This document shows positions 19,697-30,781 of a stretch of 64,000 bases of DNA, piece after piece; the stretch's first letter is position 1; every line of letters begins with the position of its first letter. This stretch comes from Candidatus Chisholmbacteria bacterium (GTDB lineage Bacteria > Patescibacteriota > Microgenomatia > UBA1400 > Chisholmbacteraceae): NCBI GenBank assembly GCA_963704905.1, contig CAVPHZ010000002.1, positions 292,537-356,536 on the forward strand. The letters run 5' to 3'. The notes under the pieces were generated by a model, which saw nothing but the letters and a program-made list of their open reading frames with translations, was not told the DNA's origin and made no database searches. The position numbers and the translations under genes are program-made.

Positions 19697-19954
19697 ATGG
19701 AAACAAAAGTCAGAAAACGAAACGGTTTGCTTGAAAATTTCGATTCAAACAAAATCATCCAGGTGGTTACAGCAGCTGGACTTGAAACTCAACAGGCAGA
19801 AAAACTCACTAAAACAATAGAAAATTGGCTAAAATCATTAAAGCAGCAAAGCATATCATCCCTCAAGATCAGAGATCAAGTAAGCCAGAATCTAAAAAGT
19901 ATCGATCCTCATGCCTATAACATGTATCGCCAATACCAACAATCGAAACAGTAG
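19697..19954 (+). CDS. stand-alone ATP-cone domain protein
   Basis: VRKRNGLLENFDSNKIIQVVTAAG..E.A..L matches the ATP-cone consensus (V.KR.G..E.F...KI). Confidence 0.5.
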   Translation: METKVRKRNGLLENFDSNKIIQVVTAAGLETQQAEKLTKTIENWLKSLKQQSISSLKIRDQVSQNLKSIDPHAYNMYRQYQQSKQ

Positions 19955-19960
19955 CCCAGA

Positions 19961-20287
19961 ATGACCAAGTACAAAGAGTACTACCAAAAGATGATCAGCA
20001 ACAATGAGAAGCTGTTTAAATCTTTTGAAGAAGTTCATGCTGCCTACGATTTACAACCAACCAAATGGCAAGCAGAGTTCAACCAGCTTGGAGAACAAGT
20101 ACTAGAACTTGTGAGAGAGTACGAAAACCGTCTTTGTGGTAGGTCTGAAGGTGGTGGATACGCTCAATACTCTAGCCGTCTGGCAGAAAAATTTCAGGCG
20201 GAAGTGAAAAAACATTTTCCAAAAATAGATTTTGTCGGGGTCACAGTTTCTAAACCATTTACCCTCCGTAAAATATTCTTCTCCTAG
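19961..20287 (+). CDS. hypothetical protein
   Basis: ORF only. It sits 7 nt downstream of the ATP-cone ORF. Confidence 0.35.
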   Translation: MTKYKEYYQKMISNNEKLFKSFEEVHAAYDLQPTKWQAEFNQLGEQVLELVREYENRLCGRSEGGGYAQYSSRLAEKFQAEVKKHFPKIDFVGVTVSKPFTLRKIFFS

Positions 20288-23903: not shown

Positions 23904-25358
23904 TTATAGCTTTTTTACCTTAGTACCATCTGGGGTATCCTCAATTTCGTAACCGGAGCGGCTAATTGAATCACGAACTGTGTCAGCCTTATCAAATTCA
24001 CCTGCCGTTCGTAGCTCATCACGTTTTTGAATTAATTCTTGAACCTTCTTGGGTAGTTCATCATTGCGTAATAACGATGATTCCCAAGCACCCAAACCAA
24101 GACCGAGAACCTGGTCAAATTCCATCAAGAGATCAAACTTGTCATACCCTGGAATATTGCTTTTTACCACTTCCCAAACAATTCCCAATGCTTCAGGTAA
24201 ATGAAGATCTGTGGAGATCGCCTGTAAAAACCGCTGTTTGTATTTCTCAATTTTCTCCAACTTATCCTCAGAAAGAACGGTTCGTTCTTTCTCATGACGA
24301 AACTCAGTTACTGCGTTTCTCAAGCGCCCAAGAGCTTTGGCAGCTGAATCAAGCGACTCCCAAGTAAAATTGATCTGTTTTCGATAATGACCGGTAAGAA
24401 AAAAATATCTCAGTTCCATCGGTTCATACCCGTGCTTTTTAAGATCTTGAAGTTTATAGGCATTTCCAAGACTCTTACCCATGCGGCCGCCATCGATTTG
24501 CAAAAATGAACCATGTATCCAATAGTGTACAAACGGCGATTGACCTGTAGCCGCTTCTGACTGTGCAATTTCATTCGGGTGATGAGTGCTTCGAAGATCC
24601 TCTCCTCCGACATGGATGTCAAATTGCTTCCCTAAATACTTCATGCTCATTGCACTACACTCAATATGCCATCCAGGAAAACCTTTTACTTTACCCCGAG
24701 CACCAGGAGGGGCCCAGGGTGATTCCCATTCCATATCCCGCTTCTCTTTCTTTGGGCTAAACTTCCAAAGTGCAAAATCTCGTGGATCTTTTTTTTCAGG
24801 ATTCGGCTCAACCCGCGCACCTTCTTGGATCTGATCCAAAGTCGAGAGTTCTCCATAGGTATGACCGGTTTTCTCATACGCCCGGGTATCAAAATAAACT
24901 CCATCATTGATCAAATACGCAAATCCTCTCTTTTCAATTGCTTGTACTAGCTTGATCTGCTCAACAATATGATCAGTCGCTTTAGAGAATACTCGGGGCT
25001 CTGTGAGGTTCAGTTCTTTAAAACCTTGAAGAAAATCATCAGTATAAAACGTAGCTACCGCCCAGGCAGTCTTACCTTCCCGGCGTGCCCCTTTTTCAAG
25101 ACGATCTTCACCAGTATCAGCATCGCCGAGATTATCGCCGGTGAGATGTCCGACATCGGTAATATTCATGATGTAATCGACGTTATACCCCAAATACTGA
25201 AGAGTCCGTACTAAAAAATCACCAAGCGTATAGGTACGCCAGTTTCCAATAGTCATGTAGTCATACACCGTAGGACCACAAGTATAAATCCCAACTTTTG
25301 ACTTCGAGATTGGCGTAAAATCTTCAACAGTTCTGCTGAGCGAATTAAATATCTTCAT
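23904..25358 (-). CDS. cysS: cysteinyl-tRNA synthetase
   Basis: YTCGPTVYDYMTIGN (HIGH-region equivalent), the KMSKS-equivalent RMGKSLGN, and an anticodon-binding C-terminus. Confidence 0.9.
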   Translation of the reverse strand: MKIFNSLSRTVEDFTPISKSKVGIYTCGPTVYDYMTIGNWRTYTLGDFLVRTLQYLGYNVDYIMNITDVGHLTGDNLGDADTGEDRLEKGARREGKTAWAVATFYTDDFLQGFKELNLTEPRVFSKATDHIVEQIKLVQAIEKRGFAYLINDGVYFDTRAYEKTGHTYGELSTLDQIQEGARVEPNPEKKDPRDFALWKFSPKKEKRDMEWESPWAPPGARGKVKGFPGWHIECSAMSMKYLGKQFDIHVGGEDLRSTHHPNEIAQSEAATGQSPFVHYWIHGSFLQIDGGRMGKSLGNAYKLQDLKKHGYEPMELRYFFLTGHYRKQINFTWESLDSAAKALGRLRNAVTEFRHEKERTVLSEDKLEKIEKYKQRFLQAISTDLHLPEALGIVWEVVKSNIPGYDKFDLLMEFDQVLGLGLGAWESSLLRNDELPKKVQELIQKRDELRTAGEFDKADTVRDSISRSGYEIEDTPDGTKVKKL

Positions 25359-25591
25359 GAGTTGCGTGTAATCAAGTTTATATTGCTTTTTCTTTGAAGT
25401 AAATCATTTGCCATTTCACTTGCTTCACGAACCAGCTGGTCGTATCCGACACCATTCTTACAAATCGTGGTAATTTTATAAAGAGCGCTTCGATAATCAA
25501 CTTTCATTATCAGACTATTGCCACTTTTATCATTTAAATAGTAGTGCGCAACTCCTATATACAGTTCGTGAATAGATGAATATTTCATACC

Positions 25592-25616
25592 AAAAAAAAA
25601 CTCCCTTTATTGGGAG
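25592..25616 (-). terminator. rho-independent terminator after the 25839-30052 operon
   Basis: Read on the minus strand: CTCCC-AATAAA-GGGAG followed by a U9 run (plus-strand A9 at 25592-25600). Confidence 0.6.
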
Positions 25617-25838
25617 CGCTTTTATTAAATAAACAAGTGACTAGTTCACTACAAAGCCTCCCCGCATTCGGCGAGTTCACAGCAACAACGTTGTAAGGTA
25701 GTTTTGAAATTCATAATTCTAGAAGTATAAATCGAAAATGTTGTATTGTCAATCAATTTCGGTGTTCTCAAATTGCCGTTCTCTTGAGTATACACTCTCT
25801 AAGTGCGGAATACTAGATACCTCATACTAAATCTATAA

Positions 25839-26348
25839 TTATTTCGGTTTCTTCGGACCAAATTCCCCAGCTCCTTTGGCTCTTTTTGCAGCTGTTACAG
25901 CCAATGCCTCATCCTTCCTCTGCTGTTCAATAACAGCAACTTGCCGTTCCTGTTGTTTCTGCTTTTCCTCATCTTCTTGCATTTGTCGTAGTCGTCTAGC
26001 TTCGTCCGCCTGTTTCCGCACTCTCTCACTAGCCTGAAAAATATTTTTATGAAGAATATTTCTCATCCGTTTGAGCTTCGCATCTTTTTCCGCTTGATAT
26101 TTCTGTCTTTGCAGATCCGTTTGACCGTGTGGTTGCTTCTGTTGATGTTGCTGCATAGAGCTTACGCTACTATACCCTTGCTCTTTGGCTGCTTCCTCTT
26201 GATCTTTTTGTTCCTTTTTCTCCTCATCCGTTTTTTCTCCTACCATCCGTTGAAACACGGTCTTTGGCGCTTGCTTCATCGCCTGCCCAGTCTGCTTCCC
26301 TTGTTCAAGAAGTTGTTCTCCAATATCACGACCAATTTGCCTGACCAT
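25839..26348 (-). CDS. hypothetical low-complexity charged (K/E/Q-rich) protein
   Basis: ORF only. It is the last gene of the operon. Confidence 0.4.
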   Translation of the reverse strand: MVRQIGRDIGEQLLEQGKQTGQAMKQAPKTVFQRMVGEKTDEEKKEQKDQEEAAKEQGYSSVSSMQQHQQKQPHGQTDLQRQKYQAEKDAKLKRMRNILHKNIFQASERVRKQADEARRLRQMQEDEEKQKQQERQVAVIEQQRKDEALAVTAAKRAKGAGEFGPKKPK

Positions 26349-26406: not shown

Positions 26407-26970
26407 TTATGAAGTCCGCTGTATATATTGCTTCGCTTCTTCGAGGATAAGTTCAACTAGCTCTTCAGGATCTGATGATCGTACAATAGAAGGTGGAGAT
26501 TTGTAGTTTTTTTCAATGATATCGTCTACAAGTTCCATTGTTCCCGATATTCCTGTTAATAGTCCAATTGGCTTTCTATGATCATAGGCAATCGTAAACT
26601 CGTTAAGCGTCCCTGTTCCTCCGCCAATGAAAATAACGGCATCAGATGATTGAACCAATAGGACATTCCTTCCCTTTAGTCCCAAACCTGTATAAATGAC
26701 ATATTTCCAGGCGTCCAGTGGTTTTTTAAATCGGGAAACATGCTCTTCCCTTCCTTCTGCGTGAGAAAAGCAAATGGATAAACCACCTACCAGCTTTGCG
26801 CCTTCGGCCGCCTCATACCCAACACCTCGCATTCCTCCGGTAATGACTGCGACACCCTGTTCTGCCAACAACCTTCCGATGGTTCTTGATACTTCTAGCG
26901 CCTTGCTTTCAAGTTTCTCGTCAGCAGAACCGCAAACACCGACCACGATGTTGTTTTGTAACTTAACCAT
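26407..26970 (-). CDS. LOG/TIGR00725-family (SLOG superfamily) Rossmann protein; predicted nucleotide phosphoribohydrolase-like
   Basis: ITGGMRGVG...AAEGA and IGGGTGTLNEF correspond to the LOG GGGxGxMG / PGGxGTxxE motifs. Confidence 0.6.
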   Translation of the reverse strand: MVKLQNNIVVGVCGSADEKLESKALEVSRTIGRLLAEQGVAVITGGMRGVGYEAAEGAKLVGGLSICFSHAEGREEHVSRFKKPLDAWKYVIYTGLGLKGRNVLLVQSSDAVIFIGGGTGTLNEFTIAYDHRKPIGLLTGISGTMELVDDIIEKNYKSPPSIVRSSDPEELVELILEEAKQYIQRTS

Positions 26971-26973
26971 ATA

Positions 26974-27588
26974 CTATCTTTGTATTTCCTTCAGCTGATT
27001 TCCGGTCTCATTGAGGTACTTTCGGTTCCGTAATAGATCCTCCTCAATCAGCTGTCGTAGAAAAACCGCTCGAGGTACTTTTCGCTCCTTTGATACCCAA
27101 TCAAGAAACGCGTCAATTTCACTTGAGATAAAAAAGTTAAAACGGGTATCCGCAGTGTCCTTGGCATATTCAATATAATCTGTGAGCACCTTCTTTAAAG
27201 TATTCTCATCGTATTCAGCCAAATGAAGATAGTCATCACCAACAGATTGTAATATATGGGGTTCCCGTCCTTTTAAGAAAAGAACAATCGTTGGCTTGTT
27301 ATGAGCAATAGCATAGGAAACTTCTTGACCAAGACTAATGCTAGGATAAGATGCTTCAACTACAACAATATCTGCTTGATGTTTCCAAGCAATCATCTTG
27401 CGGTGCAGGGCAATGACTTCTCCGGTATTCTCCCATTTCTTATCGAGAAATTGCTTTGCATATTTCCCAAACAGGTGCTCTGCTATGACCCGATGCCCCA
27501 AGTCTTTTAATGTCTGAGTAATCTTAAGATACAATTCTCGATGGCTTTTTGGAGCCGATGAAATAGATGCTGAAAAATAAATTTTCAT
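26974..27588 (-). CDS. DNPH1 / nucleoside 2-deoxyribosyltransferase-like protein with a C-terminal ribbon-helix-helix-like tail
   Basis: MKIYFSASISSAP...VIAEHL...QADIVVVEASYPSISLGQEVSYAIAHNKPTIVLF aligns with DNPH1 YFCGSIRGG...VLTEHV...ADVVVAEVTQPSLGVGYELGRAVAFNKRILCLF. The C-terminal tail is TRFNFFISSEIDAFLDWVSKERKVPRAVFLRQLIEE. Confidence 0.6.
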   Translation of the reverse strand: MKIYFSASISSAPKSHRELYLKITQTLKDLGHRVIAEHLFGKYAKQFLDKKWENTGEVIALHRKMIAWKHQADIVVVEASYPSISLGQEVSYAIAHNKPTIVLFLKGREPHILQSVGDDYLHLAEYDENTLKKVLTDYIEYAKDTADTRFNFFISSEIDAFLDWVSKERKVPRAVFLRQLIEEDLLRNRKYLNETGNQLKEIQR

Positions 27589-27594
27589 ACTAAT

Positions 27595-28356
27595 TCAAGA
27601 AAAAACCACATAACAATCAGCACATCTTGGCTCATAAATGACGCTAGCCGATGGTGGCAGCAGTTCTGGATCGCCCACTGATGGCGGCCGACCATTCACG
27701 AGCCGCTGGCCGATTATAGCATTCCTTCTCCCGCATTTTTGACAGGTTGCTTGAAGATGAAACACTTTATCCGCTCGCTCTATCATGAGAGACGAAAGTA
27801 AAAACTCAGTTCCCGGACCCGTATAGAGCAGACCCATACCGACAAACCATCCTCCCCGCTCTTTAAATCTCTCTACCTCTTTTAAAAAAAGACTTTGCAT
27901 TTTATACGGAATAAACATGACTTCATCAACAATAACAACGTCGTTTTCATCAAACAGCTTTTGAATCTCATCCCGATTACTGAATGTAGCTACTGGAACT
28001 TTAGTTCCATTCTTTGAATAAAAGTATCCTTCAACAACATCCGATCGATTAACTTTTGGTTGTGCCTGAATAAACGACCGCGTCTTTCCCAGATACTTCG
28101 TCAAAGCAATTCCAGCGAGTGTCTTGCCGCTATGTAGAGGTCCATAGATATAAATGATTCCCCCTTGATCAAGGTTTGATGTATTTATTGTCTCAGCAAT
28201 ACTTCGCGCCACTTGCTTGGAGCGCTCATAGATATAATCAAAAAGATGCTTTTGTTCAGCGGGGACAGGAAGTTTGTGCGGTGGAATATGAAGATTCTTA
28301 TCTGATATTTGTTTTCTGTGTGAACGTTTGACAGTAGGCATAGCTGACCACCTCAA
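27595..28356 (-). CDS. tdk: thymidine kinase (type II/TK1-like) with a ~60-aa N-terminal extension
   Basis: IYGPLHSGKT P-loop, VVIVDEVMF (compare DEAQFF), and the C-terminal zinc ribbon CQKCG...CADCY. Confidence 0.7.
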   Translation of the reverse strand: MRWSAMPTVKRSHRKQISDKNLHIPPHKLPVPAEQKHLFDYIYERSKQVARSIAETINTSNLDQGGIIYIYGPLHSGKTLAGIALTKYLGKTRSFIQAQPKVNRSDVVEGYFYSKNGTKVPVATFSNRDEIQKLFDENDVVIVDEVMFIPYKMQSLFLKEVERFKERGGWFVGMGLLYTGPGTEFLLSSLMIERADKVFHLQATCQKCGRRNAIIGQRLVNGRPPSVGDPELLPPSASVIYEPRCADCYVVFS

Positions 28357-28931
28357 CGCTTTCGAAATTCAGGATATTTTCGCATTTCTCTGCTGATGAG
28401 CTGTCGTAAATACACTGCCCGGGGAATTCTTCGTTTATTGGCAATCCAATCTAAATACGATGAGAGCTTACGAGAAATGAAGAAATTAAATCTGGTATCC
28501 ATTTGACCCGTGGCGTAGTCTATAAGTACCGGTATCTCGTTTTGGAGCTCGCTTGGATTATTGTAATTTACAACTTGAAACTTCTCATTTTGTTTGAGTG
28601 TAGTAAGTAAATGAGGGGTTTCCTCACCAGCATAAAAGGCTATTGTTGGTTTTCCGCTCTCAATAGCCACAGAAACCAAATAACCTACACTTGTACTTGT
28701 ATAAGATAAATCTGTAACTATCAGATCAGCAGATCTTATTCCAGCCAGAATTTGCTTATGAAACTTCACATCTCGAGAGTCATCCCAATTATCGATTTCG
28801 TCCTTTGTCACCCCCAATACATGATCTGCTTCAACAATATGGCCTTCATCCTGAAAATAACTCAATATTTGTTTATAATTTTTCTCGAATTTATCTTTAC
28901 CATGTATCGAAGCAATAAAAAATATCTTCAT
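28353..28931 (-). CDS. second DNPH1 / nucleoside 2-deoxyribosyltransferase-like paralogue with the same RHH-like tail
   Basis: MKIFFIASIHGKD...SADLIVTDLSYTSTSVGYLVSVAIESGKPTIAFY, then DTRFNFFISRKLSSYLDWIANKRRIPRAVYLRQLI. Its ATG overlaps the upstream stop (ATGA). Confidence 0.6.
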   Translation of the reverse strand: MKIFFIASIHGKDKFEKNYKQILSYFQDEGHIVEADHVLGVTKDEIDNWDDSRDVKFHKQILAGIRSADLIVTDLSYTSTSVGYLVSVAIESGKPTIAFYAGEETPHLLTTLKQNEKFQVVNYNNPSELQNEIPVLIDYATGQMDTRFNFFISRKLSSYLDWIANKRRIPRAVYLRQLISREMRKYPEFRKR

Positions 28932-30052
28932 TCCAACCACCTCAATCCGTGTGCCTGAATAAATTCACCCTCAAGTTGGTGAACGCGGTCAAATGCTATT
29001 TGACCTGCAATTCTGGGTGGGTTTCCAAGAACTAACCTTCCGTCAGTAGTTCGAAGCGAATCATTGCCATCTGGCTTATCTAAATCATGATACATTTCAT
29101 ATGTCACAATATTTACATTCATTTTAAATTGTTCCGCAACTTGAAGAACATTCTCAACACCCTGCTGAGCTACAACAGGAGCTATAATTTCGATCGAGGA
29201 CGGACGAACATCCTCTCTCGACCGCAGGAGGGTTAAAAACCCTATAGTTGTTTTGCCACTCACAATAGCTATCTCAAACATCCGCAGAGGTCCCTCTGAA
29301 GCACCAACGAGCAATCTGTCTACAGTAGGTCTAAAAGAGTCGCGCTGTAGGTTCATTCCTAATCCAAATTCACCGTTCATACGAGGAACTCTAGTACTGT
29401 TAATTGGAACGATACAACCGCTCGCAATATTTGGTAGTGCTTGCCGGGCACATAATGCAGCTCCCTTGAGAGGAACTAGAGTTGTTATACAATCAGCAAC
29501 AACATCATCATCACTCTCTAGTTTCTGTCTAGAGATATCTTGAGAAGATCCGTATGGTAGTGTGCTACTTAGTATTTCTAAGTACCTGATATATTTCTCA
29601 TGAATACCCATTGCCTGTAGTTGCTCTAAATCAGGGTCTGAAACATTTCTAGTGCTTTCCGCAATCTCAATTAACCCTGATAGTGCATACTTAGCGTCTT
29701 TCTCAAGACTCCTGGGAAGAACCCCAGGCTCCCTGGCTAGTATTCTAACCTGTTCGCTGCTATGTTTAATCCTTTTCTCTTCGGGAACACCTGATTGCTC
29801 ATACATACTACGAAAATTAAATCCTTCGAATTCGATGTATGAAAAAGTAAATACCTGAGGACTGTTTCTCGTTATATGTTCTTGAGAAGCATCACTGACT
29901 ACATGGGGAAACTCAGACGAAGCTTCAAAATACCGAAGAAGCTGAGTGTCGCTTATCCTAAATTCTTTTGGAAAATTTCCTTGATCTAACTCAGAACTTA
30001 GCGACGCAGTATGCTCTCTAAAAATCTGTTCGCTTTCAGTTTTTGTGCTCAA
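28928..30052 (-). CDS. fusion protein: unknown N-terminal domain of about 200 aa plus a C-terminal uracil-phosphoribosyltransferase-like (PRTase-fold) domain
   Basis: The C-terminal ~170 aa align with Upp: LVPLKGAALCARQAL to ILRAGLGM; IEIIAPVVAQQGVENV to IKVLVLVAAPEGI; RLVLGNPPRIAGQIA to YIIPGLGDAGDKIFG. The PRPP loop reads EIAIVSGKTTIG instead of IVDPMLATGG. Its start overlaps the recR stop. Confidence 0.5.
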   Translation of the reverse strand: MSTKTESEQIFREHTASLSSELDQGNFPKEFRISDTQLLRYFEASSEFPHVVSDASQEHITRNSPQVFTFSYIEFEGFNFRSMYEQSGVPEEKRIKHSSEQVRILAREPGVLPRSLEKDAKYALSGLIEIAESTRNVSDPDLEQLQAMGIHEKYIRYLEILSSTLPYGSSQDISRQKLESDDDVVADCITTLVPLKGAALCARQALPNIASGCIVPINSTRVPRMNGEFGLGMNLQRDSFRPTVDRLLVGASEGPLRMFEIAIVSGKTTIGFLTLLRSREDVRPSSIEIIAPVVAQQGVENVLQVAEQFKMNVNIVTYEMYHDLDKPDGNDSLRTTDGRLVLGNPPRIAGQIAFDRVHQLEGEFIQAHGLRWLE

Positions 30053-30663
30053 AACTCCCTCCTCCCTTCAAGTGATCGTGCCAATGTCACATCATCCGCG
30101 TACTCAATATCACCACCAACCGGCAAGCCACGGCCGATCCGGCTAATAGTCACCGAATGCTCGTTCTTCTCCATCTTTTCACGAACCATTTTTGCAATAA
30201 ACATCGCTGTTGCCTCCCCTTCCATGGTAGGGTTAGTTGCCAAAATTAGTTCAGAGATTTTACCATCTTCCAGACGGGGAAGCAATTCTCTGATATGTAG
30301 CTCATCAGGACCAATATTTCGAAGGGGTTCAATCCGGCCGTGTAAAACATGATAGAGACCGTTATACCCATCGCTGCGTTCGATCGCCATCACATCTAAA
30401 GGCTCCTCTACAATACACATGACTGTCTGGTCGCGAGACCTATCTGAGCAAATCTCACAGGGATCCTGCTCTCCCACATGGAAACAGACGGAGCAAACCT
30501 TCGTCTTTAGCTTCAACTCTTTCACAGCTTCAGAAAATTTTTCCAATTCTTTCTGAGGCACATGAAGAAGATAAAACGTGAGACGCTGGGCTGTCTTCGG
30601 ACCGATCCCGGGAAGCCGCTCAAAGGAGGAAATGAGTCGTTCTACCGCTTTAGGGACTTTCAT
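30049..30663 (-). CDS. recR: recombination protein RecR
   Basis: HhH (LPGIGPKTAQRL), a C4 zinc finger (CSVC...CEIC) and a Toprim C-terminus. Confidence 0.9.
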   Translation of the reverse strand: MKVPKAVERLISSFERLPGIGPKTAQRLTFYLLHVPQKELEKFSEAVKELKLKTKVCSVCFHVGEQDPCEICSDRSRDQTVMCIVEEPLDVMAIERSDGYNGLYHVLHGRIEPLRNIGPDELHIRELLPRLEDGKISELILATNPTMEGEATAMFIAKMVREKMEKNEHSVTISRIGRGLPVGGDIEYADDVTLARSLEGRREF

Positions 30664-30781
30664 TAATTATTTAAAAAGTTCTCGTGGCATTATAGCATGC
30701 AGAATTTGATTATGAAGTAACTGAAATTACAACATTCAGCGTTGTACCAATTGATACATTAACAGAACTAATGAATTTACT

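Follow-up and report, generated by a model that had tools for sequence, protein, structure and literature searches.

A very divergent member of the uracil phosphoribosyltransferase lineage and its DNPH1-like partner in a salvage gene cluster of a Candidatus Chisholmbacteria bacterium

The DNA analysed here, referred to as the window, is a stretch of 64,000 nucleotides of contig CAVPHZ010000002.1 from a Candidatus Chisholmbacteria bacterium (assembly GCA_963704905.1), whose minus strand carries an open reading frame (ORF), hereafter X, encoding a very divergent member of the uracil phosphoribosyltransferase (UPRTase) lineage of type I phosphoribosyltransferases (PRTases). X lies at 28928..30052, exactly where the original prediction had placed it, and comprises 374 codons starting from a TTG at 30052, with AGGAGG 5 nt before the start. 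It is translationally coupled to the upstream gene recR (30049..30663), whose stop codon overlaps its start as TTGA, while its own TGA stop overlaps the ATG of the following gene as ATGA. This following gene, hereafter the partner (28353..28931), encodes a DNPH1/Rcl-like domain with a C-terminal tail resembling a ribbon-helix-helix (RHH) domain. The rest of the salvage cluster lies downstream of the partner on the same strand (26407..28356) and is composed of a thymidine kinase (27595-28356), a second DNPH1-like protein with an RHH-like tail (26974-27588) and a SLOG/LOG-like protein (26407-26970). Upstream of X, dnaX, ybaB, a PfkB-family (adenosine-kinase-like) kinase and an S-adenosylhomocysteine (SAH) hydrolase precede recR; all of these neighbours are co-directional with X, and adjacent genes overlap or lie a few bases apart.

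The placement of X in the UPRTase lineage is secure because profile comparison, structure prediction and structural search agree. Searches of Protein Data Bank (PDB) sequences with X alone or with alignments, including the one of 31 family members, returned only noise (best UPRTase match E 0.5), and the Pfam UPRTase model PF14681 was matched by 16 of the 31 aligned members, below threshold (best member E 1.1e-4). Comparison by hhalign of the family profile with an alignment of four Upp sequences, drawn from PDB alignments, gave a match of 85% probability (E 6.4e-6) in which residues 118-344 of X correspond to residues 9-207 of E. coli Upp. AlphaFold2, supplied with the 31-sequence alignment, produced a confident single-body model (pLDDT 88.7, pTM 0.88), and the top 25 matches of this model in a Foldseek search of the PDB were all UPRTases (E 1e-7 to 2e-4). 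Judged from these structural neighbours, the predicted model contains the type I PRTase core, a five-stranded alpha/beta fold with a hood, and its nearest neighbours are UPRTases with full-length coverage. The fold assignment derived from the model is secure, and the lineage is specifically UPRTase-like, beyond a generic PRTase.

The UPRTase-homologous region extends over residues 118-374 (28931..29701, minus strand), of which residues 118-189 form the N-terminal helices of the UPRTase; a low-confidence insertion (residues 169-189) and a helical C-terminal tail (residues 345-367) lie within it. The family-specific N-terminal part, residues 1-117 (29702..30052, minus strand), falls outside the alignment. 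The original prediction had recognised the resemblance to UPRTases, which the profile match and the Foldseek results uphold, and the structure prediction that it proposed as a check yielded a confident model with UPRTases as nearest neighbours. It had confined the similarity to the C-terminal ~170 residues, while the homology begins at about residue 118 rather than 200; by the same token the N-terminal domain, in which the original prediction had recognised no motif, measures ~90-117 residues instead of ~200.

The elements which bind 5-phosphoribosyl pyrophosphate (PRPP) in type I PRTases are retained in X; the residue counts given from here on refer to the 31 aligned family members. The PRPP, or 5-phosphoribosyl, loop is found at 29246..29290 (minus strand) and reads PLRMF-E260-IAIV-S265-G266-K267-T268-T269, namely a hydrophobic strand, an acid and an [ST]-G-x-T turn at the N-terminus of a helix, as in the PRPP motif of type I PRTases. 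E260 and T268 are present in 31/31 members, position 265 is Ser or Thr in 31/31, and G266 is kept in 29/31. The register of the loop was the same in all three hhalign runs, which set FEIAIVSGKT opposite VDPMLATGGS of Upp, and the predicted secondary structure (beta-strand 255-259, acid E260, a two-residue bridge, helix from 267) has the geometry of a standard PRPP loop. The original prediction had instead aligned IAIVSGKTTIG with IVDPMLATGGS and concluded that the acid was lost; that alignment is three residues out of register, the acid is kept as Glu260, and only the Pro of the Asp-Pro pair has gone. The conservation of the loop in homologues had been named as the check on this point, and a correct alignment reveals an intact acid-x4-[ST]-G-x-[ST] motif, which is the very observation that the original prediction regarded as fatal to itself. 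Its proposal of a sensor or N-glycosidase, argued from a modified phosphate loop, is left unsupported because the loop is intact in this register. What is truly rewritten in X is the C-terminal base-binding motif, together with that Pro.

The pyrophosphate (PPi) loop V193-P-L-K196-G-A198 (29459..29476, minus strand) is equivalent to VPILRAG of Upp, the family pattern being V-P-L-[RK]-G-G. K196 was aligned by hhalign with Arg78 of Upp (Arg77 in Mycobacterium tuberculosis), and position 196 is Arg in 18/31 members and Lys in 9/31, with G197 kept in 29/31 and P194 in 28/31. The beta-hairpin known as the flexible loop (residues 214-234, IVPINSTRVPRMNGEFGLGMN; 29351..29413, minus strand), which closes over the site, carries R221 at the end of its first strand, followed by P223 and G232, and both R221 and G232 are invariant (31/31). 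Although hhalign aligned this segment poorly, an ungapped reading of the strand and the predicted hairpin equate R221 with Arg102 of Upp, so that K196 and R221 account for the PRPP-binding or catalytic arginines of UPRTases. In the M. tuberculosis enzyme, Arg77 (within ILRAG), Arg102 (within YR) and the PRPP loop are listed as PRPP-binding or catalytic (PMC3570474), and the regions of characterised UPRTases to which positions 196, 221, 260-268 and 331 of X map contain Arg77, Arg102, the PRPP loop and Asp198, respectively (PMC3570474).

The base-binding end has been remodelled. The segment corresponding to it covers residues 322-349 (29006..29089, minus strand) and reads HDLDKPDGN-D331-SLRTTDGRLVL-G343-NPPRIA; D331, which sits in the hairpin preceding GNPPRIA, is present in 30/31 members, and position 344 is D in 11, S in 10, N in 4, K in 3 and R in 3. 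The Asp within the GLGDAGD motif of UPRTases, which is Asp198 in M. tuberculosis and Asp200 in B. caldolyticus, is the residue suggested to activate uracil (PMC3570474), and within the 31-member alignment GDAGD is kept by two outlying members alone, P0035 and P0038. Furthermore, the internal hood hairpin of Upp (residues ~48-70) has no in-sequence counterpart in X, where the low-confidence linker of residues 169-189, short or disordered, takes its place. Within the N-terminal part, residues 1-27 show little conservation and low model confidence, while residues 28-110 are predicted with high confidence as a beta-rich module, for which no sequence relative was found in Pfam, NCBIfam or the PDB. 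Its F68, in VFTFSYIEF (family consensus FNYxxxDF), is invariant (31/31), and R94 is Arg in 18/31. We infer that this module may cover the base pocket in place of the hood element that X lacks.

The family to which X belongs is real and rare. Among 1.84 billion cluster representatives searched exhaustively with HMMER, 45 relatives had E < 1e-3 and 35 of these had E < 1e-10, the typical length being 290-320 residues, and a word-indexed homology search returned X itself and one relative of 29% identity, a 31-sequence profile giving three matches. A scan of GTDB representative genomes with an early alignment recovered no relative and likewise missed the source genome. The family is unannotated, and all contigs bearing an organism name are from Patescibacteria; neither X and its relatives nor DNPH1-RHH fusions were found described in the literature searched. 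The source organism itself belongs to the Patescibacteria (CPR), and the cysteinyl-tRNA synthetase encoded in the window shares 56-68% identity with those of metagenome-assembled genomes labelled "Patescibacteria group", Microgenomates and WWE3. Mean identity across the 31 members is ~23%, the aligned members being 17-30% identical to X; on average, the 30 other members share ~17% identity with X over the N-terminal module and ~30% over the PRTase core. The resulting picture is of a branch of a well-known enzyme fold which is set apart from UPRTases by two hallmark motifs and by its domain composition, and which lies below the curated UPRTase models.

The loci fetched for comparison, designated by L numbers, revealed a recurrent gene order. 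The arrangement recR-X-partner is found again in L001-L004, L012, L013 and L020, at ~30% identity for X, and X and its partner are likewise paired in unrelated surroundings, beside type IV pilin genes (L005-L007) and a UvrD-like helicase (L008). Across these three contexts (recR, UvrD and pilin), the partner immediately follows X in eight of the nine core-family loci for which downstream sequence is available. A distant member keeping GDAGD adjoins pyrG and another PRTase. In loci lacking X, the slot that separates recR from the DNPH1-like gene is filled by ORFs which, from their sequences, look like PfkB-type kinases in L016 (7694-8662) and L017 (6657-7586), and by a methyltransferase-like ORF in L014 (4647-5714), the closest relative of the window; in the window, unlike L016 and L017, the PfkB kinase is placed upstream of recR together with the SAH hydrolase. 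The slot ORFs of L014, L016 and L017 were considered as ultra-divergent homologues of X and set aside, given that no hidden Markov model matched them and that their sequences are methyltransferase-like or PfkB-like. A role in defence or in mobile elements was likewise discarded: PADLOC gave no match for X or its partner, tblastn against 50,697 phage records returned none, and BFVD yielded a weak generic HGPRT match alone.

The family profile of the partner matched DNPH1/Rcl chains of the PDB over the whole catalytic domain (E 4e-16), and the domain shares with them the N-terminal S-I-x-G phosphate motif. It is extended by a tail of ~55 residues with the pattern DTRFNFF[IV]S...PRAV[YF]LR.LI (DTRFNFFIS...PRAVYLRQLI in the window), to which the full Pfam RHH_3 model matched in four of five sequences, below threshold (E 0.016-0.05). 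To compare the catalytic residues, 15 DNPH1-like genes, taken from the window and from loci L001, L002, L005, L008, L012-L014, L016, L017 and L020, were aligned with rat Rcl. DNPH1/Rcl proteins carry their nucleophile Glu in GVGYELG, whereas all eight copies directly downstream of X have Leu at this position (SVGYL; SVGYLVS in the window). The Glu is kept in six copies which do not adjoin X, namely the one at 26974-27588 in the window, L001b, L014a/b, L016 and L017, and is likewise lost from the non-adjacent copy L014c, which reads AIGQL. The general-acid Asp of DNPH1 (in HEQDL) is absent from both the Leu and the Glu forms. On the strength of these alignments, the X-linked partner appears to be a catalytically dead DNPH1-like protein, and the DNPH1-like/RHH family may consist of nucleotide-sensing DNA-binding proteins. 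The strict coupling of X to a protein lacking the nucleophile and bearing an RHH-like tail is the most interesting open point of this locus.

As a separate observation, the region downstream of the X homologue P0047 in L011 (4900-5900 of contig k141_903575), where the partner gene would be expected, consists of ~1 kb without any ORF longer than ~145 residues on either strand; the stretch may encode a structured RNA or have undergone degradation.

On a modest balance of the evidence, X would be an active PRPP-dependent pyrimidine-base transferase working within a salvage operon, with uracil as the most likely acceptor. An active transferase is the simplest explanation because the PRPP-binding elements are kept and the closing hairpin is strongly conserved in a family of only ~23% identity. 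A role in salvage fits because of the operon context and of a slot shared with nucleoside kinases, while uracil is the default acceptor because of the UPRTase lineage and the pyrG-linked relatives; given the rebuilt base pocket, the base preference is uncertain and uracil stands as a default guess. In such a transferase, three elements would bind PRPP-Mg: K196-G197 of the PPi loop, Arg221 of the closing beta-hairpin, and the PRPP loop, where Glu260 would stand in for the Asp of UPRTases and S265-G266-K267-T268, at the N-terminus of the helix, would clamp the 5'-phosphate. The C-terminal hairpin with Asp331, probably together with the N-terminal beta module, would form a remodelled hood covering the base, which is presumably of the pyrimidine type and would attack C1', giving a nucleoside 5'-monophosphate and PPi. 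For the cell, this would amount to the recapture of bases within a tightly coupled salvage operon of recR, X, DNPH1-like, thymidine kinase, DNPH1-like and LOG-like genes. Patescibacteria are generally held to depend on scavenged nucleobases and nucleosides.

Several observations weigh against this interpretation. Taken alone, X is matched by PF14681 with E 0.027 and 14.4 bits, for a cut-off of 27, and over residues 263-325 only, and the NCBIfam scan gave no upp match. Where UPRTases have Asp-Pro, X has E260-I261 and its family Glu followed mostly by Ile or Val; the residue after the acid is V in 22, I in 4, A in 2, L in 2 and D in 1 of the members and Pro in none. Importance for catalysis has been reported for that Pro by Lundegaard & Jensen (1999), as cited in PMC3570474. 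The GLGDAGD(R) motif of Upp, with its proposed catalytic Asp, is absent from X, which reads G343-N-P-P-R-I-A, and the counterpart of that Asp depends on the method, being D331 by hhalign and position 344 (N344 in X) by MAFFT. Within the closing hairpin, X carries T220 where 29/31 relatives carry Lys. PRPP-site conservation is also present in non-catalytic regulators of the PRTase fold, such as PurR of Bacillus subtilis. Moreover, X evolves much faster than every neighbour, at a pace uncommon among housekeeping salvage enzymes. When the window is compared with L002, X is 33% identical, whereas identity reaches 61% in the partner, 64% in RecR, 58% in the PfkB kinase, 70% in the SAH hydrolase and 50% in the cysteinyl-tRNA synthetase. 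Lastly, a simple role in salvage does not account for the dead DNPH1-like/RHH protein with which X is constantly paired.

Some of these same points would be accommodated if X were a non-catalytic sensor of PRPP or of a pyrimidine nucleotide, forming with its partner a two-protein regulator of salvage genes comparable to PurR or PyrR of B. subtilis, in which a PRTase fold serves to sense PRPP or UMP, but with the nucleic-acid-binding module on a separate polypeptide; we regard this as rather unlikely. The sensor idea, deprived of its argument from the loop, survives on other grounds, namely that X is invariably coupled to an RHH-bearing partner and evolves fast. The partner directly follows X in eight of nine core loci and in three genomic contexts, every X-adjacent copy has Leu at the DNPH1 nucleophile while six of the seven non-adjacent ones keep Glu, the tail is matched by the full RHH_3 model in four of five sequences, and X has lost both the motif of the catalytic Asp and the hallmark Pro. 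Set against this, the RHH assignment is below threshold, and X itself has no DNA- or RNA-binding domain in Pfam and NCBIfam scans: PurR (PDB 1o57) has its own winged-helix DNA-binding domain and PyrR (PDB 1w30) binds RNA directly, whereas X lacks such modules and is structurally much closer to UPRTases. The hairpin (K/T220-R221-x-P223...G232) and D331 are, in addition, as conserved as the PRPP loop, which would be expected of a catalyst but is superfluous for simple binding. No conserved operator-like motif emerged upstream of the operons, where a search for shared 8-mers in nine loci and the window yielded only the core GCATGCTATAAT of a promoter-like site, common to the window and to the region upstream of recR in L014. 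This site, TTCATA-16-TGCTATAAT with an extended -10, is located upstream of recR at 30689..30716 (minus strand), and the X-partner pair is embedded within the recR operon, away from the promoter.

An active enzyme of the PRTase fold could also serve another base, such as thymine, 5-hydroxymethyluracil, cytosine or a different heterocycle, or run in the reverse or hydrolytic direction, from a nucleoside monophosphate to the base and PRPP or ribose-5-phosphate, the latter version corresponding to the N-glycosidase idea of the original prediction. The change from GLGDAGD to GNPPRIA with a new, near-invariant Asp331, the additional N-terminal module with invariant F68 that probably substitutes for the missing hood hairpin, and the linkage to DNPH1-like proteins, thymidine kinase and a LOG-like nucleotide phosphoribohydrolase homologue all speak in this direction; mammalian DNPH1 is deposited in the PDB as a 5-hydroxymethyl-dUMP N-hydrolase. 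Nothing positive, however, points to another substrate, and the distant members keeping GDAGD stand in a pyrimidine context beside pyrG. Since UPRTases recognise uracil largely via backbone atoms, the loss of the motif is no proof of a changed specificity. The intact PPi loop argues for chemistry with PRPP and PPi, and we know of no PRTases acting as hydrolytic N-glycosidases; altogether, a different base or direction seems improbable, if worth keeping in mind. That X is a decaying or spurious ORF, or that its UPRTase resemblance is an artefact of structure prediction, is effectively refuted. The two database relatives alone given by the word-indexed search and a poor first AlphaFold2 model built on two sequences (pLDDT 36) might have suggested it, but the 374 codons are intact and coupled in translation to the genes on either side, 45 homologous clusters (35 below 1e-10) emerged from the exhaustive search, syntenic orthologues at ~30% identity keep the invariant active-site residues, and Upp was found independently by profile comparison from sequence alone.

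A further possibility, which we put forward tentatively and would not expect to hold, is that X and its dead DNPH1-like/RHH partner constitute an undescribed two-protein module, in which X would be either a PRTase for a base other than uracil or the half that senses the ligand in a PurR-like regulator split over two proteins, with the partner as the half that binds DNA. In the first case, one conceivable substrate is a pyrimidine base, modified or deoxy-derived, that N-glycosidases of the DNPH1/LOG type set free.

Compared with the known bacterial, archaeal and protozoan UPRTases (Upp, PF14681; PDB 2ehj, 1i5e, 1vst, 1bd3, 1o5o), X has ~90-117 additional N-terminal and ~25 additional C-terminal helical residues; it evolves faster, remains below the Pfam threshold and is linked to a DNPH1-like/RHH gene. 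A partial parallel is offered by animal UPRT homologues, which like X belong to the UPRTase family and keep the PRPP site while the uracil-binding region is altered. In human UPRT, two glycines are missing and the protein is inactive in vitro, yet the Drosophila homologue krishah acts on 4-thiouracil in vivo, for which a base-presenting helper has been proposed (PMC4536494). Animal UPRTs are, however, clear members of the family by sequence and retain the four active-site regions, whereas X is bacterial, far more divergent and endowed with a different N-terminal module.

Other features of the window deserve mention. The SLOG/LOG-like protein at 26407-26970 (minus strand) was assigned to SLOG cluster-4/TIGR00725 and is matched weakly by the PADLOC model PsyrA (E 2.6e-6) and by models of cytokinin-riboside-5'-monophosphate phosphoribohydrolase; it is probably another salvage protein of the nucleotide N-glycosidase type and not a defence gene. 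The last gene of the operon (25839-26348, minus strand) encodes a protein of 169 residues, very rich in Lys, Glu and Gln and without family assignment, which is 53% identical to its counterpart in L014 (8729-9238). Elsewhere, a tblastn match of E. coli Upp at 19775-20002 (E 0.006) was taken as due to chance, the small ORFs there being unlike PRTases; of the two found at 19697-20287 (plus strand; 85 and 108 residues), the first resembles by eye a protein of the ATP-cone type.

Upstream of orf77/cysS (23904-25588), also on the minus strand, a candidate Cys-codon leader-peptide attenuator was noted at 25600-25752. A strong promoter-like site at 25752-25724 (TTGACA-17-TATACT, 11/12 matches) is followed by the mini-ORF MNFKTTLQRCCCELAECGEAL, which contains three consecutive Cys codons, and an intrinsic terminator at 25617-25600 (GCTCCCAATAAAGGGAGT and a run of nine T) lies between the mini-ORF and cysS. 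A GGGGAG just 3' of the Cys codons may pair with the CUCCC of the 5' arm of the terminator, giving an antiterminator. Cys-rich mini-ORFs also precede cysS in L017 (MNILSCCTCPCDEGECTC) and L020 (MKNLSCCPCDDGEGECSC), and possibly in L016, while the leader region had no match in Rfam. From its sequence, the region looks like a leader-peptide attenuator responsive to the charging of tRNA-Cys.

Should X be merely a divergent Upp, the outcome would be an improvement in annotation, of modest importance. Many salvage steps of Patescibacteria are assigned to "hypothetical proteins", and the X family, invisible to Pfam and NCBIfam, would supply a missing PRTase step. X also illustrates how the UPRTase scaffold can drift while the PRPP site is kept, with Glu in place of Asp, the Pro and GDAGD lost and a hood that appears to be rebuilt from an N-terminal addition. 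The pairing of X with its partner recalls the puzzle of how animal UPRT homologues function when their uracil site is defective, and represents a testable lead to a new nucleotide-responsive regulator or to an enzyme-helper pair. If the two do form a module of their own, it would give ultra-small symbiotic bacteria a new way to scavenge nucleotides or to control such scavenging.

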